Shown piece by piece: positions 20,942-39,731 of a DNA stretch of 39,731 nucleotides. Both the position numbers and the translations under genes were made by a program. The notes under the pieces were generated by a model. The model searched no databases. It had not been told where the DNA came from and was given only the letters and a program-made list of their open reading frames with translations. Within the stretch, counting starts at the first letter, position 1; each line of letters begins with the position of its first letter. The DNA is from a virus (lineage: Duplodnaviria; Heunggongvirae; Uroviricota; Caudoviricetes). The stretch spans positions 1-39,731 of the IMG/VR virus record IMGVR_UViG_2718218171_000002. The stretch is one strand, 5' to 3'.

Positions 20942-23107
20942 ATGGCCGACGAAAACAGACTCAATTCCATTCTGTGTAAGTTTGACGCAGACTGGATGGC
21001 GAGCGATGAAGCCAGAACCGAGGCGACAAATGACCTGTATTTTAGCCGAGTGTCGCAATGGGATGACTGGCTATCAAACTACACCACCCTGCAATATCGC
21101 GGACAATTCGATGTTGTTCGCCCGGTGGTCAGGAAGCTGGTCGCAGAGATGCGCCGGAACCCTATCGACGTTCTCTTCAGACCAAAAGACGGCGCTAATC
21201 CTGATGCTGCCGATGTGCTGATGGGGATGTATCGTACTGATATGCGCCATAATACGGCAAAAATTGCCGTTAACGTTGGCGTTCGTGAGCAGATAGAGTC
21301 CGGCGTTGGTGCATGGCGTCTGGTCACGCAGTACGAAGACAACGATCCAACAAGCAACAATCAGGTAATCCGACGCCTGCCAATCCATGAAGCCTGCTCA
21401 CACGTCATATGGGACGCCAACAGCAAGCAGATGGATAAGAGCGACGCTAAGCACTGCACGGTGATTAACGCTTTGTCACGCAATGGCTGGAAAGAGTTCG
21501 CAGAGGATTACGGTATTGATCCGGACACGCTGCCATCTTTCCAGAATCCGAACGACACATGGCTGTTTCCGTGGGTATCGAATGATGTCGTCTACGTCGC
21601 CGAGTATTACGAGGTAGAAGAGAAGAAGGAGAAAGTCTTCATCTACCGCGACCCGCTGACAGGTGAGCCGGTCAGCTATTACCAGCAGGATATTAAAGAC
21701 GTTATCGACGACCTGGCTAATCGTGGATTCATTAAGGTAGCAGAGCGCAAGGTGAAGCGTCGGCGTGTGTATAAGTCGATCATCACCTGCACGCAGATAC
21801 TGAAAGATCGCGAGAAGATAGCCGGAGAGCATATCCCAATCGTTCCAGTGTATGGAGAATGGTCATTTGCTGGTGACAAGGAGTGCTACGAAGGCGTGGT
21901 AAGGCTGACGAAAGACGGTCAACGCCTTCGTAACATGATCATGTCGTTCAACGCCGATATTGTTGCTCGTTCACCGAAGAAGAAACCGACCTTCTTCCCT
22001 GAGCAAATCGAAGGCTACGAATACATGTACGGTGGAAATGATGACTATCCGTACTATCTGCAGAACAGGACCGATGAAAACGGTAACGACCTGCCGATTG
22101 GTCCAATCTCCTACATGGAAAACCCTGAAGTGCCGCAAGCCAACGCTTACATGCTTGAGGCTGCCACCAACGCAGTGAAAGAGGTGGCTAGTCTTGGCGT
22201 GGATGCACAGGCAGCAAACTCTCAGGTCGCTTTCGATACCGTCAATCAACTGAACATGCGGTCAGACCTTGAGACATACGTGTTTCAGGATAACCTGGCT
22301 ACCGCAATGCGGCGTGATGGCGAGATTTATGCCTCAATGGTCAATGATATTTATGACGTTCCTCGTCATGTAACGCTGACACTCGAAGATGGAAGCGAGA
22401 AAGACGTTCAACTCTATGCGCAAGTTGTTGATTACCAGTCCGGCAATGTGGTCACACTCAACGACATTCGCGGTCGCTATGAGTGCTATACAGACGTTGG
22501 GCCATCCTTCCAGAGCATGAAGGAACAGAATCGCGCAGAGATTCAGGAGTTGCTAACCAAGGTTCCGCAAGGTACTCCAGAGTTCCAGATGCTGATGCTG
22601 CAATACTTCACGTTGCTTGACGGTAAAGGCGTCGAGATGATGCGAGAGTACGCGAACAAGCAACTGGTGATGATGGGGCTGAAGAAACCAGAAACGCCTG
22701 AAGAGATGGAGATAGTGCAGCAGGCACAACAACAGCCGCAGCAGCCATCAGCAGAGCAAATTCAGGCGCAGGGTATCCTTCTGCAAGGTCAGGCTGAATT
22801 GCTCAAGGCAGAGAACCAACAGGCGCAGATTCAGGTTGAAGCTGCCAAGGTTGAAGCTCAAAACCAACTCAACGCCGCGAAGATTGCAGAAATCTTCAAC
22901 AATATGGACCTCGACAAGCAGGCAGAACTGCGTGAGTACCTCAAGCTCGTAGGTCAATTCCAGCAACAGCGCAGCAAAGATGCTCGTGCTAACGCTGAGC
23001 TGCTTCTTAAAGATGCAGACCAGACTCATTCACAACGCATGGATTTCGCGAATCTTATGCGTCAAGTTCAAATCCCCTCCGGCGGAGTAGCCGAGACACC
23101 TCAATAA
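20942..23107 (+). CDS. 1: portal protein (P22 gp1)
   Basis: 721 aa, P22 portal-like with Gln-rich C-terminal barrel segment. Confidence 0.9.
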
Positions 23108-23120
23108 GAGAGAGTTAATC

Positions 23121-24032
23121 ATGGACCAAACCACCGACATTCAGGCTTCTGAAGAATTAACCCTGCCCGGCAATCATGCAGCGGCATCTGCTGATGGCTT
23201 AGTTGTCGATAATGCCAACGACAACGCAGGTCAGGAAGAAGGCTTCGAGATTGTCCTGAAAGACGATGAGAAACCAAAACAAGACCCGGCAACTAATGCT
23301 GAATTTGCCCGTCGCCGCATCGAACGCAAACGCCAGCGTGAGCTTGAGCAGCAGATGGAAGCGGTTAAGCGTGGAGAGTTGCCGGAGCACCTGCGGGTGA
23401 ACCCTGAGTTACCAAAACAACCAGACCCTAACGATTATCTTTCCGAAGATGCACTGGCTAAGTACGACTATGACCAGAGCCGCGCACTGGCTGCCTTCCA
23501 GCAGGCAAACAGTGAATGGCAGATCAAGGCTATGGACGCACGAAGCCAGGCTGTCGCCGAGCAGGGTCGCAAAACTCAGGAGTTCACCCAGCAATCAGCG
23601 CAATACGTCGAGGCAGCCCGTAAGCACTACGACGCAGCGGAAAAGCTCAATATCCCTGACTATCAGGAGAAAGAGGATGCATTCATGCAACTGGTGCCGC
23701 CAGCAGTCGGTGCCGACATCATGCGCCTCTTCCCGGAGAAATCCGCTGCTCTCATGTATCACCTTGGTGCTAATCCTGAGAAAACACGCCAGTTGCTGGC
23801 GATGGACGGGCAATCCGCGCTGATTGAACTCACTCGACTGTCAGAACGTTTAACTCTCAAGCCTCGAGCCAAACCTGTTTCAGAAGCCCCGCTACCTGAT
23901 GAACCCATTCAGGGACACGCTGTTGCTGCAAATATATCTGCGATTGAAAAGCAGATGGAAGCGGCAGCAAACAAAGGGGATGTAGAGACATACCGCAAGC
24001 TCAAGGCGCAACTGAATAAAGGAATTCGATAA
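23121..24032 (+). CDS. 8: scaffolding protein (P22 gp8)
   Basis: 303 aa, P22 gp8 size and sequence. Confidence 0.85.
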
Positions 24033-24554
24033 TTATTTCGATATCGTGATGTTGTTTTCCTCGTCAAACTTTCTGATTACTTCTCTCGCCTCTTCGAATG
24101 AAGAACATACTTTTTGCACTCTTGCATTAAGCAGTCGCTTATGAGCGATCCATCTTTTCCGCGTGTTGCAAAAGTAAACTCCAGATATTCCGCTGGAGTT
24201 ATTTTTAGATAGTTTGATTCTATTCCTTTGGTTTGCTGATTTTTTCACAAGACGAAGATTTTCAATTCTGTTGTCGTGGCGAATCCCATTTATATGGTCA
24301 ATTTCCATGCCTTCTGGAATATCTCCGTTAAACATCACCCATACGATGCGGTGTGCTAGCCACTTAATGCCGTTAATTCTTATGCGGATATATCCATTGC
24401 TTTCTAAAAGACCAGCAACTTTCCCAGCGTGTTTTGCATTCCAAACGTTGTGATAGTTGCGATTCTTTTTGTTGTTGAAAAATTCAGAGCTTCTGGCTTT
24501 CCAAACCAAAGAGCCATCGCGGTATTCGAAGTATTCATTCAGTTCCATGCTCAT
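24033..24554 (-). CDS. HNH homing endonuclease (HNH_3 plus AP2-like DNA-binding domain)
   Basis: 173 aa; motif EIDHINGIRHDNRIENLRLV and C-terminal GISGVYF..RKRW; AT-rich; antisense to the late operon. Confidence 0.75.
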   Translation of the reverse strand: MSMELNEYFEYRDGSLVWKARSSEFFNNKKNRNYHNVWNAKHAGKVAGLLESNGYIRIRINGIKWLAHRIVWVMFNGDIPEGMEIDHINGIRHDNRIENLRLVKKSANQRNRIKLSKNNSSGISGVYFCNTRKRWIAHKRLLNARVQKVCSSFEEAREVIRKFDEENNITISK

Positions 24555-24561
24555 AACCCTA

Positions 24562-24598
24562 ATGCGCTATATGTTGATATAACAATAGTATAGCGCAT
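24562..24598. repeat. 10-bp perfect inverted repeat (ATGCGCTATA / TATAGCGCAT) between HNH start and coat RBS
   Basis: Read directly from the sequence; 16-17 bp spacer. Confidence 0.6.
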
Positions 24599-24621
24599 AA
24601 AGAAAGTAAGGTATTCAATAT

Positions 24622-25917
24622 ATGACTCTCAAAGAAGGGCAGTTAGTTACTTACGCTATCGATGAAATCATCGAAACCATCCAGAACCTGACGCCAATGG
24701 CGTCCAAAGTGACAAAATACACCCCTCCGGCAGAATCCATGCAACGTTCAAGCAACACCGTGTGGATGCCTGTTGAGCAGGAAGCGCCAACTCAGACTGG
24801 CTGGGATTTAACTGGCAACGCAACCGGGATTCTGGAACTCTCCGTGAAATGCAATATGGGCGATCCGGATAACGATTTCTTCGAGCTTCGTGCAGATGAC
24901 CTGCGTGATGAGCGTTCTTACCGTCGCCGCATCCAGGCATCCGCCAAAAAACTGGCGAATAACATTGAGTCAGCGATTGCCAAACAGGCAACTGAAATGG
25001 GCTCGCTTGTTGTTCACGATACCCGCGCAATTGGTCCATCTACTGGCCTGTCTGGCTGGGATTTTGTGTCTGATGCAGAGCGCCTGATGTTCTCCCGTGA
25101 GCTAAACCGCGATATGGGCATCAGTTACTTCCTGAACCCTGACGATTACCGCAAAGCAGGCCGCAACCTGGTAGATGGTGACATCTTTGGGCGCGTTCCT
25201 GAAGAAGCGTATCGTAACGGTACTATTCAGCGCCAGATTGCTGGCTTTGATGAAATTCTTCGCTCACCGAAACTTCCGGCAGTTACCAAGTCAACCGCTA
25301 CTGGTGTAACTGTTTCTGGTGCGCAGAAGTTTAAGCCGCAGGCATACACCCTTGATACCGATGGTAACAAAGAGAACGTCGACAACCGTGTTGCAACGGT
25401 GACCGTATCCTCCACCACCGGATTTAAGCGCGGAGACAAAATCAGCTTCACTGGTGTGAAATTCCTGTCTCAGATGGCGAAGAACGTGCTGACTGATGAT
25501 GCTACTTTCTCAATCACCCGTGTGATCGATGGTACTCACATCGAAATCACGCCGAAGCCGATTGCGCTTGATGACTCTTCACTGACAAAAGAAGAGAAGG
25601 CTTACGCTAACGTAAACACCTCTCTTGCTGATTCCACTCCGGTAAACGTTCTGAACGTGGCAACAACCACCGCCAACGTGTTCTGGGCTGATGACTCAAT
25701 CCGCCTGCTGTCTCAGCCGATTCCGGTAACCCATGAACTGTTTGCTGGCATGAAAACGTCTTCCTTCAGCATTCCTGGTATTGGTGTTAACGGCATCTTC
25801 GCAACGCAGGGTGATATCAATACTCTGTCTGGTAAGTGCCGTATTGCTGTGTGGTATTCAGCATGTGCTGTACGGCCAGAGGCAATTGGTGTTGGTCTGC
25901 CTAACCAGACCGCGTGA
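24622..25917 (+). CDS. 5: major capsid (coat) protein (P22 gp5)
   Basis: 431 aa, P22 coat-like throughout. Confidence 0.9.
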
Positions 25918-25925
25918 TAACCAGA

Positions 25926-25946
25926 GGGAGCTTCGGCTCCCTTTTC
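25926..25946 (+). terminator. intrinsic terminator after coat gene (UUCG tetraloop hairpin)
   Basis: GGGAGC-UUCG-GCUCCC followed by TTTTCTATT. Confidence 0.6.
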
Positions 25947-25960
25947 TATTGGAGATACCA

Positions 25961-26560
25961 ATGAGCGTAATGATTTTTCAGGCTGGCGGAGATACCAAAA
26001 TCTGGGGGCGCAAGCTGAAAACGAAAACCGTTGATCCTGATGATGTAGCTGTGCACTTAGCAAATGGCTGGTATAAGCACCCTGACGATGTTCCTGATGA
26101 TCCTCTTGTTGGTGATCAAATTGGGAATGTTGGCGGAGGTGAAACTTCCCCAGTTGATATGGGCGAAGTGTCCGACGGTTATCACACTTTTAACGAGCTT
26201 TACGCTCACCGAGTGCGACTCTTCTCATCGCTGATGCATGCTTACGCTGAGTTTTCGTGGTGGTCTCGCAAACACAGTGACGGTGAAGAGTGGGATGGCT
26301 GGATCATTGCTGGTATCACCACTCCAGAAGGCGAAATCACTTATCACCTACCTGTTGAAGAAATCGAGTTCCTTCCTGAAGGTACTGAGCTTGAGTTCGG
26401 GAAAGAGTGGGATGGTCATGAAGCAAATGATGTTCTTGGACGACTCCTGAGTTTGCGTCCGGCTATTGCAGAGCCAGAGCCAGAGCCAGAAGAAAAACAG
26501 CGTAAAAAGCCTGGTCGAAAACCTAAGGCGGCAGCAGATGAACCTGACAACGAAGGGTGA
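25961..26560 (+). CDS. hypothetical protein (199 aa) between coat and gene 4
   Basis: ATG preceded by GGAG RBS just after the coat terminator; C-terminal EPEPEPEE plus Lys-rich tail; overlaps gene 4 start. Confidence 0.5.
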
Positions 26561-27038
26561 TTTAGTTCTTGCGGCATTACGTAAGCTCGGTGTGGCATCA
26601 AATGCCACGTTAACCGATGTCGAACCTCAGTCCATGGAAGATGGTGTCAACGACCTTGAAATGATGATGGCTGAATGGCTTGGCGGTGATGCGTCACCAG
26701 GTATCAACGTTGGCTACATTTTCGCTGATGCAGATGTCGCTCCGGATCCGGGCGATGAGCACGGTTTATCAAATAACGCTATCAATGCCGTCATTTTTAA
26801 CCTTGCCTGCCGCATTGCTCCAGATTATGCGCTGGAAGCGTCTGCAAAACTTATAACCACTGCCAGATACGGGAAAGAGCGACTCGTCAAACTGTCTGCA
26901 ATGGATAGGGCAAAAGCCGCTAAATGTAAGTCCGGTTATCCAAACCGTATGCCTGTTGGTAGCGGTAACCAGTTGGCGAAGTGGAACGGTTGGAATTACT
27001 TCCACCGGAAGGAACCTTGCGATAACGGGGGCGAATAA
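26538..27038 (+). CDS. 4: head completion / tail accessory protein (P22 gp4)
   Basis: 166 aa; [25 protein letters not shown] block matches P22 gp4 as remembered. Confidence 0.8.
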
Positions 27039-28457
27039 ATGCCGATTCAGCAACTTCCGCTTATGAAAGGTGTCGGCAAAGACTTCCGAAACGCCGACTA
27101 TATCGACTATCTGCCAGTGAATATGCTGGCTACTCCCAAAGAAATACTCAACAGCAGCGGATATCTTCGCTCATTCCCGGGCATTGCCAAACGTTCTGAT
27201 GTGAACGGTGTATCGCGCGGAGTCGAGTACAACATGGCGCAGAATGCTGTTTATCGCGTTTGCGGTGGCAAGTTGTATAAGGGTGAAAGCGAAGTCGGTG
27301 ACGTCGCCGGAAGTGGTCGCGTATCAATGGCGCATGGTCGAACATCTCAGGCGGTAGGCGTTAATGGTCAACTGATCGAGTATCGCTATGATGGTACGGT
27401 TAAAACCGTCTCAAACTGGCCTACAGACAGTGGATTCACTCAGTATGAGTTAGGTTCAGTTCGCGACATTACGCGCTTACGTGGGCGTTATGCGTGGTCA
27501 AAAGACGGAACTGATTCATGGTTTATCACTGATCCTGAAGACGAATCGCATCCTGACCGTTACAGCGCACAATATCGTGCCGAGTCTCAGCCGGACGGCA
27601 TCATCGGTATCGGGACATGGCGAGACTTCATCGTCTGCTTTGGTTCATCGACTATTGAATATTTCTCCCTTACTGGCGCAACCACCGTTGGTGCTGCTTT
27701 GTATGTCGCACAGCCATCACTGATGGTGCAAAAAGGCATCGCCGGGACTTACTGCAAAACGCCGTTTGCTGATTCGTATGCGTTCATCAGCAATCCGGCA
27801 ACGGGTGCGCCGTCTGTGTATATCATCGGCTCCGGTCAGGTGTCACCAATTGCCAGCGCGAGCATTGAGAAAATCCTCCGCTCCTACACTGCTGATGAAC
27901 TGGCTGATGGTGTGATGGAATCGCTGCGGTTTGATGCTCATGAGTTGCTGATTATCCACCTTCCTCGCCATGTTCTCGTGTACGACGCATCTTCAAGCGC
28001 CAATGGTCCGCAATGGTGTGTACTGAAAACAGGCTTGTATGACGATGTGTACCGCGCTATCGACTTCATTTACGAAGGAAATCAGATAACGTGCGGCGAT
28101 AAGCTGGAATCGGTGAACGGGAAATTGCAGTTCGATATCAGCAGTCAGTATGGGCTTCAACAGGAACACCTGCTGTTTACTCCACTGTTCAAAGCGGATA
28201 ACGCCAGATGCTTCGATCTGGAGGTGGAATCATCCACTGGCGTAGCTCAGTACGCCGACCGCCTGTTCCTCTCTGCAACCACTGACGGCATCAATTACGG
28301 GCGTGAGCAGATGATTGAGCAGAATGAACCGTTCGTTTACGACAAACGAGTTTTGTGGAAGAAAGTAGGGCGCATCAGGAAAAACATTGGTTTCAAATTG
28401 CGCGTTATCACGAAGTCACCTGTCACTCTGTCTGGCGCTCAGATAAGGATTGAGTAA
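27039..28457 (+). CDS. 10: tail accessory protein (P22 gp10)
   Basis: 472 aa, P22 gp10 size and position. Confidence 0.8.
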
Positions 28458-29410
28458 TGGCGGATTCGAATCTCAATGTGCCGGTAACCATTCAGGCCAC
28501 ACGGCTCGATACATCAGTTCTTCCACGCAATATCTTCTCGCAGTCGTATCTGCTTTACGTTATCGCACAGGGCACTGATGTTGGTAACGTGGCTAACAAG
28601 GCTAACGAAGCAGGGAAGGGTGCTTATGATGCACAGGTGAAGAATGATGAGCAGGATGTCACCCTTGCAGACCATGAATCCAGAATTGAAGCTGCTGAAG
28701 CAACTCTCATCAATCATGAAAATAGAATTGCAGCAGCGGAAAGCACTCTTGCAGATCATGAAACAAGGATTACGGCTGCTGAAACAGAGCTGGCTGATCA
28801 CGAGACGCGAATTGCTGCCAATGAATCTGAGTTAGCAAACCATGATGCGCGCATAACTCAGAATACAACCGATATCGACGCACTTGATACCAGGCTCACA
28901 GCGGCAGAGGGAAGTATTTCGACGCTACAAAGCACAGTTGGTGATCACTCAACAAGAATATCTGCGCTTGAGTATGCCACCACGCGCAAGAAATCAGAGG
29001 TTGTTTACTCAGGAGTATCTGTAACCATCCCGACAGCGCCGACCAACCTTGTTAGCCTGCTGAAAACGCTCACGCCGTCATCCGGCACGTTGGCACCATT
29101 CTTCGACACCGTTAACGACAAGATGGTTGTGTTCAACGAGAACAAAACCTTGTTCTTCAAGCTGTCGATCGTCGGGACGTGGCCCAGCGGAACCGCCAAC
29201 AGGTCAATGCAGCTAACCTTTTCAGGCTCTGTTCCTGACACACTGGTAAGCAGCCGCAACTCGGCGACAACGACAGATAACATCCTGTTAGCTACGTTCT
29301 TCAGCGTGGATAAAGACGGCTTTCTTGCCACAAATGGCAGCACGTTAACCATTCAGTCTAATGGTGCGGCGTTTACTGCCACAACCATCAAGATAATCGC
29401 GGAGCAGTAA
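28457..29410 (+). CDS. 26: tail needle protein (P22 gp26-like) with extended C-terminal domain
   Basis: Conserved gp26 N-terminus ([35 protein letters not shown]), heptad coiled-coil repeats, 317 aa vs 233 aa in P22. Confidence 0.75.
28664..28873 (+). repeat. five tandem 42-bp repeats encoding LADHE(S/T)RIxAAExx units
   Basis: Read directly from nucleotide and protein sequence within the needle gene. Confidence 0.7.
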
Positions 29411-29865
29411 TGATTCAGTTCAAACCAACGCGAAACATCGACCTGATCGAAGCAGTCGGAAATCACCCTGACATTATTGCCGGAAGCAACAACGGTGATG
29501 GATACGACTACAAGCCTGAATGCCGTTACTTTGAGGTGAACGTGCACGGTCAGTTTGGCGGCATTGTTTACTATCAGGAGATTCAGCCGCTGACATTCGA
29601 TTGCCACGCCATGTACCTGCCAGAGGTTCGCGGATTCAGCAAGGAAATCGGTCTGGCGTTCTGGCGATACATTCTGATTAACACCACCGTTCAGTGCGTC
29701 ACATCGTTCGCTGCACGCAAATTCCGCCACGGGCAGATGTACTGCGCAATGATTGGCCTTAAGCGTGTAGGAACTATCAAGAAATACTTCAAAGGCGTGG
29801 ATGACGTGACGTTTTACAGCGCCACACGCGAAGAACTAATCGACTTCCTGAATCACGGGAGATAG
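29410..29865 (+). CDS. 14: tail accessory protein (P22 gp14-like)
   Basis: 151 aa; gene order and TAATG coupling. Confidence 0.7.
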   Translation: MIQFKPTRNIDLIEAVGNHPDIIAGSNNGDGYDYKPECRYFEVNVHGQFGGIVYYQEIQPLTFDCHAMYLPEVRGFSKEIGLAFWRYILINTTVQCVTSFAARKFRHGQMYCAMIGLKRVGTIKKYFKGVDDVTFYSATREELIDFLNHGR

Positions 29866-29867
29866 CC

Positions 29868-30560
29868 ATGTTATATGCATTTAAACTGGGCAGAAAACTG
29901 CGCGGCGAGGAACCTTATTGCCCTGAAAAAGGCGGGAAAGGTGGCAGTTCTGATAAAAGCGCAAAGTATGCAGCAGAAGCTCAGAAGTATGCAGCAGACC
30001 TGCAAAATCAGCAGTTCAACACCATCATGAACAACCTGAAGCCGTTTACTCCTCTGGCTGATAAGTATGTCGGCAGCCTCGAGAACTTATCGTCTCTGGA
30101 AGGGCAAGGTCAGGCACTTAACCAGTATTACAACTCTCAGCAGTACAAAGATCTTGCTGGTCAGGCTCGCTATCAGAGTCTGGCGGCAGCGGAAGCAACA
30201 GGTGGATTGGGTTCCACTGCAACCGGTAATCAGTTAGCAACAATCGCACCAACGCTTGGTCAGCAATGGCTATCTGGACAAATGAACAATTACAACAACC
30301 TGGCAAATATCGGTCTTGGCGCTCTTCAGGGACAGGCAAACGCCGGGCAAACATATGCCAACAACATGAGTCAGATTTCACAGCAAAGCGCGGCGCTGGC
30401 TGCGGCAAACGCCAACCGACCGTCAGCATTGCAGCAGGGGGTTAGTGGTGCTGCATCCGGTGCACTTTTGGGTGGTGGCATAGCCAGTGCTCTCGAGCTA
30501 TCAACTCCGTGGGGTGCTGGTATCGGTGCTGGTCTTGGTCTGCTTGGCTCGTTGTTTTAA
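29868..30560 (+). CDS. 7: ejection protein (P22 gp7-like)
   Basis: 230 aa; Gly/Ala/Gln-rich; gene order. Confidence 0.7.
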   Translation: MLYAFKLGRKLRGEEPYCPEKGGKGGSSDKSAKYAAEAQKYAADLQNQQFNTIMNNLKPFTPLADKYVGSLENLSSLEGQGQALNQYYNSQQYKDLAGQARYQSLAAAEATGGLGSTATGNQLATIAPTLGQQWLSGQMNNYNNLANIGLGALQGQANAGQTYANNMSQISQQSAALAAANANRPSALQQGVSGAASGALLGGGIASALELSTPWGAGIGAGLGLLGSLF

Positions 30561-30570
30561 GGGGTAATCA

Positions 30571-32046
30571 ATGGCTACGTGGCAACAGGGTATTAATTCT
30601 GGTGGGTTTCTTGCTGGCATCGGTGCGCAAAATGAGAATGCGCCAAAGGCAAGCGACATTAACGCAACGCTTGGTCTGATCCGCGAAAACAATGAACTGG
30701 CTCGCTCAGGTGCAAATAACGTTGGTCTGACCGCGTTACGTGGTCTGGCTGGAGTTGCTGATATTTATAAGCAGGAACAGCAACAGAAAGCGATTAATGC
30801 GTTCAATAAGGTTCATGCTGATGCATGGGCTTCTGGTGATCCATCGGGACTATTTAAGTTTGCCCAGGAAAATCCAGCGTTTGTTGCACAGGCACAACAG
30901 GCATTTTCCGGTCTTAATGAGCAGCAACGCAACGATATGGGCGATTTAGCCATGAGGGCTAACGTCGCTCTTTCTCAGGGACCGGAAGCCTACAGTAAAT
31001 TCATTACTGATAACAAGGACAGGTTAAATCGCGTGGGGGCGAATGCTGACTGGATGATTCAGACAGGTATTCAGAATCCAGAGCAGCTATCACACATGCT
31101 GACTACTATGTCTCTCGGTGCACTTGGGCCAGAAAAGGCGTTTGCTGTTCAGGACAAGATAGCTGGTCGTGAGATTGACCGAGGCAGACTGGCAGAGACA
31201 ATCCGCAGCAATCAGGCCAGCGAAGCACTTCAGGCGAGAGGGCAGGATATTAGCCGAGCAAATGCGTTAACGTCAGCATATGCACCAACAGCCGCAATGC
31301 AGAATTACAATCAGTACGCGCAAATGTTAAAGGCGGATCCAGATGGTGCAGCGGCATTTGCGGCAGCGGCGGGAATTAATCCCAATGCTAAGAAATTACT
31401 TAAGGTTGAAACCAATCCTGATGGATCGGTAACTAAGTATTACACCGATGGCAGCGAGGAAGCAGGAAAACTAAACCAACCTATATCTGGTGATGGCATT
31501 AAACCAATTAGTTTGCCACAAGCGCAAAGCATCATAGATAAGGCTAATGAGGGTTCCAAGAAGGCGGCAGGATTTGCTTTGCGATTAAAAGATTCAATGG
31601 ACTCAATGAATCAGCTTAGTAAAAGCATTGACCCTAAGCGAGTTGCATTAATAAATCGCTCTCTTGGTGATGGGACTATTGCAAATTTAAGCCTATCACC
31701 AGCGGAGCAGCAATATATGGTAAATGCGAGAGACGCCTTGTATGCAATTTTGCGCCCAGAAACAGGTGCAGCAATTACTCTGCCAGAGATGCAGGAGTAT
31801 TCCAAAATGTACCTGCCTCAGCCCGGTGATTCCAAGGCTGCTACTGAAACAAAAATGCGAAAAATGCAGGGCCAATATAACTCATTACGTGGTCAGTCTG
31901 GTCGCGTTTATGATGCTTTGGTGGTTTCAAGTGCTGCAAATAGTCAACAACAGAGCAATAGCCAACAACCGACAAATACCCAACAGCAGCAGAGTCAATC
32001 CGGATCATATACCTCAAAATCAGGCATTCAATTTACGGTGGAATGA
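30571..32046 (+). CDS. 20: ejection protein (P22 gp20-like)
   Basis: 491 aa; gene order. Confidence 0.7.
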
Positions 32047-34172
32047 TGAAAGTAACTGCAAACGGTAAGACATTTACCTTCCCTGATGGTACGAGCACGG
32101 AAGATATTGGCACCGCCATTGATGAGTATTTTGCTGGTCAGGCTGTTCAGCAACAAACAGTTAATCAGGCCAATAATGAACCAGCACGTGAAGAACCATC
32201 ATTGATGCAACAAGCTGGCGATTGGCTCACAGGTGGTCAAAGTGCAGGGCAAATTGCAGAGCAGGCTGGTCGTGGTCTGGTAAACATACCATTTGACGTA
32301 TTGCAGGGTGGCGCAAGTCTGATTAATGCAATCAGCCAGGGGCTTGGTGGCCCCAAGGTTTTGGATGATGTTTATCGCCCTGTCGATCGACCGACAGACC
32401 CTTACGCGCAAGCCGGTGAAACAATTGGTGGGTATCTCCTGCCAATTGGCACAGCGGCAAAAGCTGCTGGAGCGCCAGCAAAGCTCGCTGGAGATATCGG
32501 TTCCGCAGGAAACATGATTGCAGGTTCTCTTGCTGATGCTGCAAATCAGGAGGGCGACTTTGCACAAAATGCTGCCATTAACGGTGGTATCAATATTGGT
32601 GCTCAAGGCGTTCTTTCAGGTGTCGGGCGCGTTATTGCGCCAAGGGTTTCACAGGCTCTTGGTGGTGCAGCACTGAATTCTGCTAATGATGTTTCCAGGA
32701 TGGCAAAGTCAGGTGCTGGGCGTCAGTCAATTGCCAGTCAGGCCGCTAATGTGTCCGAAGATGTAGCAAAAGCAGCTGAGTCTGCTGGAATTGATATAAA
32801 CGCATTAACACCAGGAATGCGATCTGGAAGTCGTGGAATTGCACAAGCCGAAGGCGCATTGGCATCAACACCAGGAATTGTTCAGGACGCCCATCAGGCA
32901 GCATTTAACGAAATATCATCAAAGTTAAGTCGAAACCTTGATGAATTTGGGGCCGCATCTGGAACGGCATCAGAAAAAAGTGCGGCTATAAAACAAAGGA
33001 TCCTTCAAAATCTTGATCAGATGAAGGATGCCGAGCGCGAGGCATGGGATGACGTGCGGTCAACAATGCCAAATCAAAAAGCAAGAATGCTAAATGGTAA
33101 TGCCGTTATTCAGGCAGAGCGATCTGCTGGCATACCGCTTACTCCTGAAATGAAACAGTTTGTTCAGGCAAACAATCAAGGTGGAGTAACATTTGATGGC
33201 ATGAAAGCATGGAGAGCGAAATTTGCTGATGCGGAGCAAAAATATAAGCGTAGCGGAGAGGCAAATGCGGCAAGGAGAGCAGGGGAAATACGCCGGGCAA
33301 TTACTGATGATATGCGCACAATGGCGGAAAACGGCGGATTTCTTGATGACTGGCAGAAAGCTAATGATCTGTCTAAAGCGAGGTTATCAGCACAAGAGGG
33401 TGCAGAGTCTGTTTTCGGGCGTGATTTGGCAACAGATGCACTGATTACGAATGGAGTAAAATCCCTTCAATCATCTTCAGCTAAAGGTCTTAATGGTCCT
33501 GCTGGATTCCATTCTATGATCCGCGCTCTGCCGGTATCAGAGCGTGTTCCTGCTATATCATCAATGCTGCAAGATGCTATCTCGCATGGTGTCCGTGGTG
33601 GCAAATCTGATGCAGCAGGAATTAACCATATTGCAGAGATACTCACGCCACAAAATGTAAAAGCCATTAGCCGATATTCCTCAGAGCTTGGAAGAATTGC
33701 TGATGCATATGGCACTCTTGCAAGAGCAGCTGTGAAACCTCAGCAGCATATTGAAAGAACAGGGAGAACTGCCAATGTACTACGCGATCTTGATGCTGGT
33801 TTATCCAACGTTACATCAACAGTGTTAAATGCAATTGCCAACTCAACATCAGGTGCCATTGTTGGTGGAGCAGGAGGCGGGGGCGTTGCTGGCGCTGCCG
33901 CAGGTGCTTTAATTGGCGCTGGGTTAAAAGGCGCTGTATCTAAAATTGCCACCACACGTAGTGGTCGGTATGCGATAGAGAAAGCAGTTCAGGAAGCAAC
34001 TAAAGCAGTAAGAGCAGGCGGAAGCAAAGAAGCATTAGTGGCGGCTGAACGCAGATTTATGGCAAATAAAGCTGCCGTAAAAGCAATACGTGACACAGTC
34101 GGAAACGAAGAGTTCAATCGCTTAGCGAGGGCTGGCATTGTAGCGTCGCTAAGCGGAATAGCACAGGAGTAA
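32043..34172 (+). CDS. 16: ejection protein (P22 gp16-like)
   Basis: 709 aa; Gly/Ala-rich segments; gene order; ATGA coupling. Confidence 0.7.
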
Positions 34173-34496
34173 TTAATCATCCATGGATGGATTGAGCTTA
34201 TCTCGTGTTGATGTGGCGATTTGTCCTACATTTCTAAGCCAAGATTTCAAATCCTTGATATTGTCATTGATTTCATGAATATCTTCTTTTTTTAATCTGT
34301 TAACATTATTTTCAATAATTTCAATGGATTGCTCAATATCAGATATAGTGAATGATAGTTTGTTCTTCTCATCTTTTATTGAGTTTTTAAGTGCTTCGTT
34401 CTCAGTCTTGAGGTCAGATATCTTTTGTTTTAAAGATGCCAGTTGGTACTGAACCACAATGAGTGCGATAGCTATCACGATAACTGTTGTATACAC
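34173..34496 (-). CDS. single-pass membrane coiled-coil protein (107 aa), function unknown
   Basis: GTG start after AAGGAGG RBS; N-terminal TM helix TTVIVIAIALIVVQY; strongly AT-rich; stop abuts gene 16 stop. Confidence 0.5.
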   Translation of the reverse strand: MYTTVIVIAIALIVVQYQLASLKQKISDLKTENEALKNSIKDEKNKLSFTISDIEQSIEIIENNVNRLKKEDIHEINDNIKDLKSWLRNVGQIATSTRDKLNPSMDD

Positions 34497-34613
34497 ACCA
34501 ACCTCCTTAGTTTTGAGCAGGATACCATGAAAAAAGTAAACATCTTTTGCCTACTTCACATTTGAATGTTTTGTCATTAGGATGTTTCCGGTTTTTTAAA
34601 TATGGAAATTGAT

Positions 34614-35033
34614 ATGAAGAGGATTATCGGCGTCGTTGCTGGCGCTATATTGTTATCTGGGTGCGCAACTATTGTTGGTGACGAAACACAGCTTGTGCAA
34701 GTGAACAGCAATCCTTCCGGTGCGATCTTTAAGGTAAAAGACGAATCAGGCGTGATTGTTGCGCAAGGTAAGACCCCGCAAGGAGTAACTCTTGCCAAGT
34801 CGGATGGTAGTTATTTTGGCAAAAAGAGCTACCAGATCACTATGGAGAAGGATGGGTACGAACCAGTTACCCTGCCAATCAAAGCCAATGCTAATGGTTG
34901 GTATATTGGTGGGAACCTTGTGTTTGGTGGGTTAATTGGTTGGCTTGCTGTAGATCCATTTAATGGTGGGATGTATACCTTGAAGCCAAAAGAGGCAAAC
35001 GCATCTCTTATACCATCAACAAAGCAAGACTAA
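34614..35033 (+). CDS. predicted lipoprotein with PEGA-like domain (alternative start 34602)
   Basis: Signal peptide with lipobox LLSGC; PSGA..GKTP motif; Gly-rich hydrophobic C-terminal segment. Confidence 0.55.
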   Translation: MKRIIGVVAGAILLSGCATIVGDETQLVQVNSNPSGAIFKVKDESGVIVAQGKTPQGVTLAKSDGSYFGKKSYQITMEKDGYEPVTLPIKANANGWYIGGNLVFGGLIGWLAVDPFNGGMYTLKPKEANASLIPSTKQD

Positions 35034-35041
35034 TAAATAGG

Positions 35042-35066
35042 ACCCACCTTCAGGTGGGTTTTTTGT
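35042..35066. terminator. bidirectional intrinsic terminator between lipoprotein gene and mnt
   Basis: Stem ACCCACC/GGTGGGT with TTCA loop followed by TTTTTTG; mnt stop codon lies within the hairpin. Confidence 0.6.
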
Positions 35067-35301
35067 ACAAATCCTTCAGCGTATCAAACACCATCTTCTT
35101 AACAAGCTCTGATTGCTCATCAGCGATGCGTTCCGCATCGTCTCGATAGCCTGAAATTTTGGATGGCCTTGATACAGCATCAGTCACTATCTGAACTAAT
35201 TCTGAATTAAGAGAGCGGCCATTGGATTTGGCTCGCTGTTTTAGTTTTTCCTTTAATTCGTAAGGTAGCCGCAGATTAAATTGCGGGTCATCTCTTCCCA
35301 T
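35050..35301 (-). CDS. mnt: Mnt repressor (ribbon-helix-helix, P22 immI)
   Basis: 83 aa, matches P22 Mnt as remembered, including C-terminal ERIADEQSELVKKMVFDTLKDLYKK. Confidence 0.85.
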   Translation of the reverse strand: MGRDDPQFNLRLPYELKEKLKQRAKSNGRSLNSELVQIVTDAVSRPSKISGYRDDAERIADEQSELVKKMVFDTLKDLYKKPT

Positions 35302-35365
35302 TCTTGATGCCTCGCTCTTGTGAGTGGATCGGCATCTTATTATCTGCTGGTTGCATCCTCAATAA

Positions 35366-35378
35366 GACCACGGTGGTC
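35366..35378. promoter_or_regulatory. putative Mnt operator (palindrome GACCACGGTGGTC)
   Basis: Perfect 13-bp palindrome containing the CCACGGTGG core remembered for the P22 mnt operator; sits between mnt and the tailspike gene. Confidence 0.55.
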
Positions 35379-35436
35379 GTATTTTTTGATTAATAATGAA
35401 TCACTGCGGCCATTCCTTGTATCTGGAGCAAATTAA

Positions 35437-37854
35437 ATGACAGACATTACAGCCAATGTTGTAGTGAGCATGCCTTCGCAACTCTTTACTATGGCCCGCT
35501 CTTTTAAAGCCGTAGCTAATGGCAAAATTTATATCGGTAAAATTGACACTGACCCAGTAAATCCAGAAAACCAGATTCAGGTTTATGTGGAGAACGAAGA
35601 CGGCTCTCACGTTCCTGTTTCTCAACCAATCATCATTAACGCTGCTGGTTATCCGGTATATAACGGACAGATTGCCAAGTTTGTAACTGTGCAAGGCCAT
35701 TCTATGGCTGTTTATGATGCGTATGGTGCGCAGCAGTTCTATTTTCCTAATGTGCTGAAGTATGACCCTGATCAGTTACGTCAGCAATTAGAAGACCCAT
35801 ATGGTGCGGAAAAATACCCTGAATTACAAATAGCCAGATGGATAGATGATGGAGATGTAAGGGGGTGGGGGTTAAAACCAGGCTATTATTTTGATAATAG
35901 TTCTGTATGGGAAAATCTGTTAAATTCTGGACGCAAAGATTTTGTTGTGCCTTCTGGTGTTTTCAGATTTTCTAACGGAATTGATATACCAGGAGACTTT
36001 AGATTTATAGGGCAGGGCTCTCCTATTCTTGGTTTTGGCACAGATGATGATAAGCATTTTTTGTCTGAAGGAATTAAGCAAAACATGCCGGGTTCATCAT
36101 TTATATTTTCTGGAAAAGGGACAAGAGAAGCCACGGCGTACAATCGCAATGACCAATTTTCAAGCGTAAGGTATTGTGTGCGAGTTATGTCACCAGAGTA
36201 TGGTTCTAGTGGAGCCGTATTACGTGGTATTGCAATAATTCAGGACATGGTCTGCTTTGATGGTGATGGTATTCCAACAACCCCTAATAATGATATGCGT
36301 TCAGATTATGAGTGTGGTGTTTATTACGACGACTCTGCAAGAAATCTTCAGGAGGATGTTTGTGTATTCGGATACTTTTCAAAAGCAGGTACAATAATTC
36401 AGTCAAAGCAAGGAAACGATGACCCTGATTACAATACCATTACTGGTGGGTCAACTATGGGGAGAGTCGGTTTAGCAATTCTTGGTTCAAACACTGGGCC
36501 TGCAAGTTATGGTCTCAGCGGAACTAGAGTAGATAAATGTGGTATTTATACCCTTGATCACCACAGTCGTGCATCAATGTCTCATGAAGAGCTTGTTTCT
36601 TATTACTCTAGCGCAAACACATGGCGATGCCTTTATATAGATGGTGATGTTAATGCGACATCCGCTGAAATAAATGGGCATTACTTTTATGGCTGTGAGT
36701 TTAGAACCAGAGCTAATCATGCATTAGAATTTGATCACGCATCCAACATCCAGTTTTATGGTGGCGTGGTAGAGCAATCCCCTTATGGTATTACAAATTC
36801 AGATATTCCGACTTTTATTGGTTCTGAGAATGTAAAGAGAGGCGTTGGTTTTTATGGCGTGCGCATGAATTATATTTCTCAGATATTTAATGACAATTTT
36901 GCTGGAGTGATTCCTGTAAAAATAATAGTTTCAGGCGATCCGCTAAACGGTAGATTTGGAGTTGTAGGTAAAGACCCAGCAGGCGGTTATACCGTTGCAA
37001 TTCTTGGCTCTGATGGGAATATTGGTGACGCATCAATTCAGTTTACGAAGAATGCTGCTGATGGGTCTACAGGATGGAAAGTGATGATGGATGCAAGCTC
37101 CGACAGACTATTGGTCAGCAAGGATGGAGAAACCATGACGTCACTCACTGAGACAGGAATGTACACTGTATCGGCTCCATCTGGTTCTGATGCTATTCTT
37201 GGCCTGCTCAGTAATGGCAACGCTACATCTTGGTTCATGAGAACACAATACAACAGTGTAGGTCAATTACAGTTCAGACATGGTGGGTCTGGAGCTACTC
37301 CAGCAATGCAAATAGCAACGTCAGGAGGAATAACTCCTGGAACTGATGCCACTTCAAATATAGGTAGCGCATCACTACGATATAACATTGGTTATTTTGC
37401 CGGAGGAACCCAGTCAAGCTCTGATGCAAGACTGAAGGATCCGATAAGAGAAATGACAGATTCTGAAAAGTCAGCAGCTAAAGAAATAGGAGAAATGATT
37501 GGGTTTTGGACATGGATTGATGATGACTCAAAGCGTTTGCATGCAGGAATAACAGTTCAATCAGTTATATCTGTATTAGAAAAACATGGATTAAATTGGA
37601 GGAATTATTCATTTATAGGTTTTGATGAATGGGATGACATATATGATGATGTAGTTAAAGACATCGAAGTTGAAGATGCGAATGGTAATAAAAAAATAAT
37701 ATCGGTTAATTCTGGAGAGAAAAAGCTTGTAAAAAAAGCAGGGAATCTTTTTCAATTTAGAGACCAAGAATTAGACAGATTTATAATGAGAGGGTTATCA
37801 GAAAGGATATCTGATATTGAAGATTTATTGATTAAAAAAGTTATTAAACAATAA
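35437..37854 (+). CDS. 9: tailspike protein: P22 gp9-type head-binding domain, beta-helix-type receptor-binding region, C-terminal intramolecular chaperone (S74-like) domain
   Basis: N-terminal ~115 aa matches P22 gp9; SDARLK self-cleavage-type motif about 144 aa from the C-terminus; 3' ~440 bp strongly AT-rich. Confidence 0.85.
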
Positions 37855-38558: not shown

Positions 38559-39731
38559 TTGCTGTTGAAACGCCGTCTTATTATTGCTGCTTCTTTGTTC
38601 GTTTTTAACTTATCGTCTGGTTTTGCGGCGGAAAACATTCCTTTTTCACCTCAGCCTCCAGAGATTCATGCCGGCTCCTGGGTATTGATGGATTACACCA
38701 CCGGTCAGATCCTCACCGCGGGTAATGAGCATCAACAGCGCAATCCCGCCAGCCTGACAAAGCTGATGACGGGCTATGTCGTGGATCGCGCTATCGATAG
38801 TCATCGCATTACGCCAGACGATATTGTCACCGTGGGGCGCGATGCGTGGGCGAAAGATAATCCAGTGTTTGTCGGTTCTTCACTGATGTTTTTGAAAGAG
38901 GGCGATCGCGTATCGGTACGTGATTTAAGCCGTGGTTTAATTGTGGATTCCGGAAATGATGCTTGTGTTGCTCTGGCTGACTATATTGCCGGTGGGCAAC
39001 GGCAGTTTGTTGAAATGATGAACAACTATGCCGAGAAGCTGCATCTCAAGGATACGCATTTTGAAACAGTGCATGGTCTGGATGCACCAGGCCAGCATAG
39101 CTCGGCTTATGATTTAGCTGTGCTTTCTCGCGCTATCATCCACGGCGAGCCCGAGTTTTATCATATGTACAGTGAGAAAAGTCTCACCTGGAACGGTATC
39201 ACCCAGCAAAACCGTAACGGGTTATTGTGGGATAAAACCATGAATGTTGACGGCCTGAAAACGGGTCATACTTCTGGTGCCGGGTTTAATCTCATTGCTT
39301 CGGCTGTAGATGGGCAGCGTCGTCTCATTGCAGTGGTAATGGGGGCTGACAGTGCAAAAGGTCGTGAGGAAGAGGCAAGAAAATTACTGCGTTGGGGGCA
39401 ACAAAACTTTACTACGGTGCAAATTTTGCATCGTGGGAAAAAGGTCGGTACGGAACGCATCTGGTATGGCGATAAAGAAAATATCGCCCTGGGAACGGAA
39501 CAAGAGTTCTGGATGGTGCTACCGAAAGCCGAAATTCCACATATCAAAGCCAAATATACCCTTGATGGTAAAGAGCTCACTGCGCCAATTAGCGCCCATC
39601 AGCGGGTAGGGGAAATTGAACTTTACGACCGTGATAAACAGGTGGCGCACTGGCCGCTGGTTACCCTGGAATCTGTCGGGGAAGGCAGCATGTTTTCCCG
39701 CCTGAGTGATTATTTCCACCATAAGGCTTGA
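38559..39731 (+). CDS. dacD: D-alanyl-D-alanine carboxypeptidase, DacD-like (host gene)
   Basis: 390 aa; penicillin-binding motifs SLTK, SGN, KTG; TTG start; stop codon is the last three bases of the window. Confidence 0.85.
   Translation: MLLKRRLIIAASLFVFNLSSGFAAENIPFSPQPPEIHAGSWVLMDYTTGQILTAGNEHQQRNPASLTKLMTGYVVDRAIDSHRITPDDIVTVGRDAWAKDNPVFVGSSLMFLKEGDRVSVRDLSRGLIVDSGNDACVALADYIAGGQRQFVEMMNNYAEKLHLKDTHFETVHGLDAPGQHSSAYDLAVLSRAIIHGEPEFYHMYSEKSLTWNGITQQNRNGLLWDKTMNVDGLKTGHTSGAGFNLIASAVDGQRRLIAVVMGADSAKGREEEARKLLRWGQQNFTTVQILHRGKKVGTERIWYGDKENIALGTEQEFWMVLPKAEIPHIKAKYTLDGKELTAPISAHQRVGEIELYDRDKQVAHWPLVTLESVGEGSMFSRLSDYFHHKA

Follow-up and report, generated by a model that had tools for sequence, protein, structure and literature searches.

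What kind of receptor-binding protein is encoded by the gene at positions 35437–37854, and from which sources were its parts assembled? The gene lies in a stretch of 39,731 nucleotides (nt) of DNA from a virus of the Caudoviricetes (IMG/VR record IMGVR_UViG_2718218171_000002, positions 1–39,731), referred to below as the window, and an original prediction, made from the letters alone, had seen in it a chimeric tailspike combining the head-binding domain of phage P22, a different receptor-binding module and a C-terminal self-cleaving chaperone. The open reading frame (ORF) had been placed exactly: it begins with ATG, is intact in the ORF list and encodes 805 amino acids (aa), and an exact-sequence look-up found the identical protein in NCBI under the name 'phage tailspike protein'. 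Structure prediction and domain searches supported all three modules, and we assign a probability of about 0.85 to the reading that the gene encodes the tailspike of a P22-like temperate podovirus located beside dacD in Escherichia coli, a protein that both binds and destroys the receptor, and that this tailspike is a mosaic carrying a self-cleaving chaperone.

The Pfam family Head_binding (PF09008) matches aa 1–113 over its full length (1–113/113; 223 bits against a cut-off of 24, E=8.1e-67) and this region is 77% identical to P22 gp9, ending at KYDPDQ, which bears out the proposal that the first ~115 aa correspond to the gp9 head-binding domain. Among solved structures the N-terminus matched Sf6 gp14 (7sg7) with E=5e-65 and P22 gp9 (8tvr/2xc1) with E~1e-50, and over the first 120 aa there are two mismatches to the CUS-3 tailspike (~98% identity). 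By these alignments the N-terminus is of the CUS-3/Sf6/HK620 subtype, not of P22 proper, and runs via a common linker to about aa 145. This linker mini-module is common to CUS-3, the 9vvr tailspike and myovirus fibres, and matches to phage fibres start at aa 114. Gene nt 1–435 (aa 1–145) show 91–93% identity to prophage tailspike genes in most of the 1,115 matching complete E. coli genomes, beyond which there is no similarity, and the first module junction lies at about aa 145.

The genes upstream belong to a P22-type virion module (Table 1) in which Pfam detected P22_Tail-4, Phage_stabilise, Phage_tail_NK, P22_gp7, Inj_translocase and Mnt/Arc. The tail-hub genes (gp4, gp10 and needle) are co-encoded, and the tailspike gene is the last late gene, beside immI; the virion module supplies the tail hub on which the head-binding domain would dock. 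The exact tailspike also occurs on two other contigs, there too behind the same P22-type virion genes, and on both of these a 709-aa product upstream of the tailspike is annotated PF26808 Phage_P22_gp16. On the other side, dacD starts ~700 bp 3' of the tailspike gene within a flank 95–99% identical to E. coli chromosomes, which marks the boundary between prophage and chromosome and identifies the host as E. coli. The same dacD site holds P22-like prophages with other tailspikes in many E. coli strains.

The architecture is not new, since the CUS-3 tailspike already has it. The latter is reportedly the endosialidase tailspike of an E. coli K1 prophage, a Lederbergvirus, described by Stummeyer et al. 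in 2006. According to its GenBank record (CP000711) and a review (PMC5380687), this K1-specific protein is an experimentally characterised endosialidase. Like the tailspike studied here, it joins Head_binding at aa 1–113 to a foreign enzyme module and a C-terminal Peptidase_S74 domain, has the linker LRQQLED..YP.LQIARW.D..DVRGWG, and is encoded by the last late gene of a P22-like prophage. The two differ in their middle parts, which in CUS-3 consist of endosialidase beta-propeller, beta-barrel and tail-spike domains (PF12217, PF12195 and PF12219) and here of a beta-helix, and their chaperone domains are only ~22% identical. Pfam searches with these three families and PF12218 yielded no match in our tailspike protein while all four matched that of CUS-3; an endosialidase identity was therefore rejected, only the two end modules being common to both.

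The tailspikes of P22 (gp9), Sf6 (gp14) and HK620 carry a homologous head-binding domain, closer in Sf6 and HK620 than in P22, occupy the same virion position, and have a receptor-binding part of the same general right-handed beta-helix fold. They differ in possessing an integral, uncleaved C-terminal trimerisation domain, without S74, and their beta-helices, which act on defined substrates (Salmonella, Shigella and E. coli H O-antigens), lack sequence similarity to the present one. Two further tailspikes vary the same plan: that at the dacD site of strain FORC_031, and of at least a dozen other strains, joins Head_binding to another middle module and an S74 domain 58% identical to the present one, and a more distant homologue (P0004, 72% identity) joins Head_binding to the same core and S74. 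The architecture is a recurring, described design, and what is specific here is the particular beta-helix.

The beta-helix core

Between Head_binding and Peptidase_S74 no Pfam family matched across ~550 residues. A search with aa 144–661 yielded 89 homologues, and an AlphaFold2 model based on an 86-sequence alignment gave a mean predicted local distance difference test (pLDDT) score of 82.6, mostly >90 over aa 130–630, in which the central module folds as a right-handed parallel beta-helix. This agrees with the earlier description of a different beta-helix-like region, and since it has no similarity at all to the endorhamnosidase domain of P22, its specificity would differ from that of P22, as had been anticipated.

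A large number of charged residues are invariant or nearly so among 85 homologues extending down to ~27% identity. They comprise D204, D239, D270, D299, D329, D331, the cluster D374-H375-H376-x-R378, and also D402, H415, E446 and R476. Near-invariant Asp residues recur every ~30 residues (D239, D270, D299, D329/D331, D374, D402), mostly at beta-strand ends, within aa 239–476 (nt 36151–36864). The recurring Asp and the conserved motifs GNDDPDYN (aa 326–333) and LDHHSR (aa 373–378) may border a groove for the substrate, or they may make up a structural ladder. The invariance of so many charged residues suggests that the core is an enzyme, with a chemistry that is not assignable from them.

Sequence searches found no characterised relative of the core. 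A single-sequence search of the PDB matched nothing past aa ~204 of the core, and a PDB profile search matched it only at the N-terminal cap motif, a cap common to helices of the PF12708 (Pect-lyase_RHGA_epim) type, which the family profile recognised in GH55, phi29 gp12, Sf6 and AlgE structures. When aa 167–580 were compared by tblastn with 50,697 phage records, five matches at ≤33% identity were obtained; NCBIfam yielded no match to the core and a BFVD fold search returned only unnamed or generic tail-fibre entries. Two other matches were set aside. That to phrog_8280 ('colanic acid degradation') was dismissed as evidence of substrate because it spans only aa 1–246 (anchor, linker and cap), and that to a betacoronavirus viroporin/ORF3a (E=0.044, below the cut-off) was considered noise.

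The best structural neighbours of the core are in the majority depolymerases, together with the PfbA adhesin and epimerases, all at 8–14% identity. The presence of non-enzymatic adhesins and epimerases in this group, the restriction of the profile match to the N-terminal cap and the difficulty of assigning catalytic residues by homology would be compatible with a beta-helix that only binds, or that alters a glycan without depolymerising it, deacetylation being one example. We consider this unlikely, because the invariant Asp, His, Arg and Glu residues across the 85 homologues exceed the needs of the fold alone, because most structural neighbours are depolymerases and because the P22-family tailspikes studied to date are enzymes (PMC5380687). 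A depolymerase is the preferred reading of the core, and aa 144–580 may constitute an uncharacterised family of glycan-degrading enzymes, with a range extending from E. coli prophages to Sinorhizobium, Achromobacter and Verrucomicrobiales.

Recent exchange within the receptor-binding part

The clearest trace of recent shuffling is a tract shared with the gene for an 861-aa 'tail fiber domain-containing protein' (WP_157912201.1), encoded by a different, non-P22, podovirus-like prophage type. In four Japanese isolates of E. coli, the JNE strains, nt 504–2225 of our gene match inside this fibre gene, in a prophage near yfgI/pdeF which carries genes for a holin, a GH19 endolysin and DUF2514 downstream of it. 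The tract (Table 1) contains 10 mismatches in 1,088 bp, with identities of 54–72% in the 5' flank and 59–70% in the 3' flank, and the nucleotide identity changes stepwise: from 54–72% over aa 151–300 to 98–100% over aa 301–660, then 59–70% over most of the chaperone and 50% in the last 25 codons. The representative of the protein cluster is likewise 100% identical over aa 299–661, with flanks of 68% and 65%. Dense mismatches stop at about nt 865–894 and restart within the SSSD motif at nt 1983, which is the third position of codon 661. This puts the right break at codon 661/662, where the scissile bond of the chaperone is predicted.

At the protein level the JNE fibre is 85% identical overall from aa 144 to aa 795 and 99–100% identical over aa ~299–661, with the same beta-helix core and the same design of stalk and S74. 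It differs in a wholly different N-terminal anchor of ~200 aa, in its prophage type and in its chaperone allele, which has 38% GC. Just upstream of the fibre gene, the JNE prophage (NZ_AP045053.1) has a gene for an Ant antirepressor and two for toxins of the YafO family.

The stepwise identity, together with the limit of similarity at nt 1–435, indicates at least three junctions (~aa 145, ~290–299 and 661/662) and at least one recent exchange with an unrelated prophage type. The earlier claim of recent domain shuffling is borne out by this tract, with one refinement: the recent exchange that can be seen is confined to the receptor-binding part, stops at the cleavage site and does not sit at the junction behind the head-binding domain. 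The core occurs behind at least four anchors: Head_binding, Tail_spike_N (PF18668, of the TSP1/Gp66 type), the T7 tail-fibre N-domain (PF03906) and an unassigned anchor of ~200 aa.

That the tract ends exactly at the scissile-bond codon suggests that S74 cassettes are swapped at the SSD(A/G)RLK-coding motif. If this is true, one receptor-binding module could function with chaperone alleles that are only ~65% identical. The GC contents of these alleles are 31% here, 38% in the JNE gene and 46% in CUS-3. The part coding for aa 662–805 has 31.2% GC, with 20% at third codon positions, against 47.4% for the window, and the AT-richness noted earlier for the last 440 bp of the gene was confirmed (31.4% GC, in the lowest 0.2% of 440-bp windows). 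Like the matches of the two end domains, this is well outside what chance would give. The joint proposal, that the core represents a new glycan-degrading family and that S74 cassettes are exchanged at this motif, is put forward only tentatively and is less likely than not to be correct.

The full-length gene was found in one of 5,426 complete E. coli genomes, that of strain 1506, at 98.5% identity. Such rarity, an integrase end that lies outside the window, and an immI region without arc and ant between mnt and the tailspike gene might be expected of a disused relic in a defective prophage. This is improbable, given that the frame of 805 codons is intact, that a full set of P22-type virion genes with full-length Pfam matches lies upstream, that other contigs carry the identical protein among the same neighbouring genes and that the 99%-identical tract in another prophage type argues for recent activity.

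The chaperone domain and its predicted cleavage

The similarity to S74-type domains on which the prediction of self-cleavage depended was detected by Pfam, by PDB sequence searches and by Foldseek. Peptidase_S74 (PF13884) matches aa 662–719 over the whole profile (1–58/58; 35.1 bits against a cut-off of 22, E=1.6e-8). Sequence matches of the C-terminus in the PDB were to T5 pb1 (4uw8), the fibre of Klebsiella phage Kp7 (7y5s), the AS12 tailspike (6eu4) and a neck-appendage chaperone (3gud), and T5 pb1 is the best solved relative (aa ~617–798, E=2e-25). Foldseek matched the modelled chaperone to 4uw8, to the K1F chaperone (3gw6) and to 3gud. The secondary structure assigned by DSSP runs from helices at aa 675–688, 690–694 and 707–716 through strands at aa 727–774, forming long hairpins, to a helix at aa 776–804, with pLDDT mostly ~85–95, and the modelled aa 675–804, with their helices, long beta-hairpins and 29-residue terminal helix, fit the published description of the chaperone.

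In T5 pb1, Ser1264 is the scissile and catalytic residue and is activated by Lys1269; the oxyanion site is formed by Arg1250 of the neighbouring chain with Asp1239 and Thr1263, and cleavage needs a correctly folded trimer (PMC4690869). An ungapped HMMER alignment to 4uw8 places S662, K667, R648, D637 and S661 at S1264, K1269, R1250, D1239 and T1263, respectively. The SDARLK motif at aa 662–667 is identical in T5 pb1 (Ser662 codon, 37420–37422; Lys667 codon, 37435–37437), and S-D-x-x-x-K is kept in those homologues whose C-terminal domain aligns. T5 pb1 also has the same order of secondary structures in its chaperone; it differs in being a siphovirus fibre with a bullet-shaped, oligomannose-binding tip, without a beta-helix enzyme module or a P22 head-binding domain. 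With the catalytic positions aligned, the motif kept and the fold matching, autoproteolysis at S661|S662 is the expected behaviour and would yield a C-terminal piece of 144 aa (16.65 kDa) and a remainder of 71.5 kDa.

The prediction of a putatively self-cleaving chaperone of ~144 aa with an SDARLK motif is supported, except for its boundary: the module common to T5-pb1-type fibres starts at about aa 580–596, not at aa 662, and thus includes the stalk with D637 and R648, part of the catalytic site. In pairwise alignments, all homologues cover aa ~144/167 to ~575–580 and only the ~21 closest continue through aa 581–805. The remainder have a different C-terminus of ~100 aa which, where identifiable, is a Phage_depo_C beta-sandwich (PF25692), for example in homologues P0021 and P0045. 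There is, then, one core family with two alternative C-terminal solutions. A global MAFFT alignment had suggested that the chaperone-less homologues end at the cleavage site; this was an artefact, since homology in pairwise BLAST ends at aa ~575–580.

By homology, three chains would fold together, and the S74 domain, as an intramolecular chaperone, would initiate the trimerisation of stalk and beta-helix. Once the stalk is folded, R648 of a neighbouring chain, together with D637 and S661, would shape the oxyanion site, K667 would activate S662, and the S661|S662 bond would be cut to release the 16.65-kDa fragment from the 71.5-kDa mature chain; the residues of this step are seen to be conserved, and the cut itself is deduced. 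The head-binding domain would then dock the mature trimer on the gp4/gp10 tail hub, whose genes lie upstream. Finally, the beta-helix would bind, and most likely cleave, a host surface polysaccharide, presumably O-antigen or capsule, and in so doing bring the virion to the outer membrane.

The O-antigen loci of lysogens were considered as a guide to the receptor. The window ends in dacD, short of the O-antigen locus of its own host. JNE25-003, which encodes the 861-aa fibre, carries wzx/wzy of the O17/O44/O73/O77/O106 family, which is common to all four JNE strains and present in 93 of the 5,426 genomes, and strain 1506, which encodes the 805-aa tailspike, carries an O-antigen cluster of the O88 family. 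The comparison of serotypes may be affected by the divergent segment at aa 144–298.

Several points weigh against the reading adopted here. The O-antigen clusters of these lysogens differ, so that the receptor cannot be inferred from them. The catalytic part of the helix appears to have no characterised relative detectable by sequence, and on this basis a hydrolase, a lyase, an esterase and a pure binding protein are indistinguishable. PF12708 gave no match in the tailspike protein at E≤1; among scanned homologues, two exceeded the 27-bit cut-off (31.1 and 37.6 bits), the JNE fibre scored 26.2 bits, and for some others PF12708 is among the precomputed annotations. The homologues that bear the chaperone do not all keep D637 and R648. 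The model is of a monomer, with pLDDT <50 around the cleavage site (aa 638–662) and in the head-binding domain, and cleavage, trimerisation, virion attachment and enzymatic activity are all steps that we infer. The variable equivalents of D637 and R648 and the unreliable model near the scissile bond, with the modest Pfam score of 35 bits, would also favour an S74-like domain that is retained uncleaved in the mature spike as a distal receptor-binding or stabilising domain, but this is very improbable, as S662 and K667 stand at the exact dyad spacing, all five catalytic-site positions of T5 pb1 align, the S-D-x-x-x-K motif persists wherever the C-terminal domain aligns and the characterised members of the domain family encountered here are all processed (PMC4690869).

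Neighbouring genes and significance

The genes leading up to the tailspike are, in order, the gp16-like gene, two small genes and the Mnt/Arc repressor gene. The first small gene (34173–34496, minus strand) encodes 107 aa at ~33% GC, has a coiled-coil or membrane-like character, matches phrog_5962 and occupies the position of hkcB in CUS-3. The second (34602–35033, plus strand) encodes 143 aa with a lipoprotein-like signal (…LLSGC…) and matches phrog_6823. Either may be a 'moron' that serves lysogenic conversion or exclusion. At 35050–35436 the immI region is shortened, the Mnt/Arc-type gene lying directly upstream of the tailspike gene with no arc or ant between, unlike in P22, CUS-3 and the FORC_031 prophage. 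An antisense ORF of 99 aa (35401–35700, minus strand) overlaps the tailspike start; it lacks support and is probably spurious. A scan for promoters and terminators around the tailspike gene found usefully placed sites to be no commoner than in shuffled sequence.

At its dacD site, strain 1506 has a myovirus-like prophage of another kind (NZ_CP059288.1, 1765001–1800000), whose genes include an O-antigen modification set (gtrA, a GT2 gene and a DUF6311 gene) and one for a tail protein described as 'glycosyl hydrolase family 28-related'. The P22-like prophage that encodes the 805-aa tailspike is located elsewhere in this strain, beside another integrase and yfdT/yfdR-type genes.

Table 1. Coordinates of the tailspike gene, its parts and its surroundings in the window
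Feature	Position	Strand	Evidence or remark
P22-type virion module	20942..34172	+	Pfam matches: portal, coat, gp4, gp10, Sf6-type needle, gp7, gp20, gp16-like
Mnt/Arc-family repressor gene (immI region)	35050..35301	-	PF03869 and PF11423; immediately 5' of tailspike gene
Tailspike gene	35437..37854	+	805 aa plus stop codon; exact product WP_249529836.1
Head-binding (virion-anchor) domain, aa 1–113	35437..35775	+	PF09008; PDB 7sg7, 8tvr, 2xc1, 1lkt
Neck/linker, aa 114–143	35776..35865	+	Alignments with CUS-3 and 9vvr
Receptor-binding, presumed glycan-degrading right-handed parallel beta-helix core, aa 144–580	35866..37176	+	Predicted fold
Recent exchange tract, gene nt 895–1982, aa ~299–661	36331..37418	+	99.1% identity to the 861-aa fibre gene
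Stalk before cleavage site, aa 581–661	37177..37419	+	PHROG fibre matches from aa 550–616; 4uw8 alignment
Peptidase_S74 intramolecular chaperone, aa 662–805	37420..37851	+	PF13884; PDB and Foldseek matches
Host gene dacD, 5' part	38559..39731	+	Megablast against E. coli genomes, annotated dacD

In other respects the gene is ordinary, its architecture having been known since CUS-3 and its product being already correctly named in NCBI. It shows clearly how modules of phage receptor-binding proteins are exchanged in nature, and it points to a possible uncharacterised family of beta-helix depolymerases. Moreover, the near-identical tract of 1.1 kb, with its break at the cleavage-site codon, supplies concrete junctions which could guide the engineering of chimeric tailspikes.

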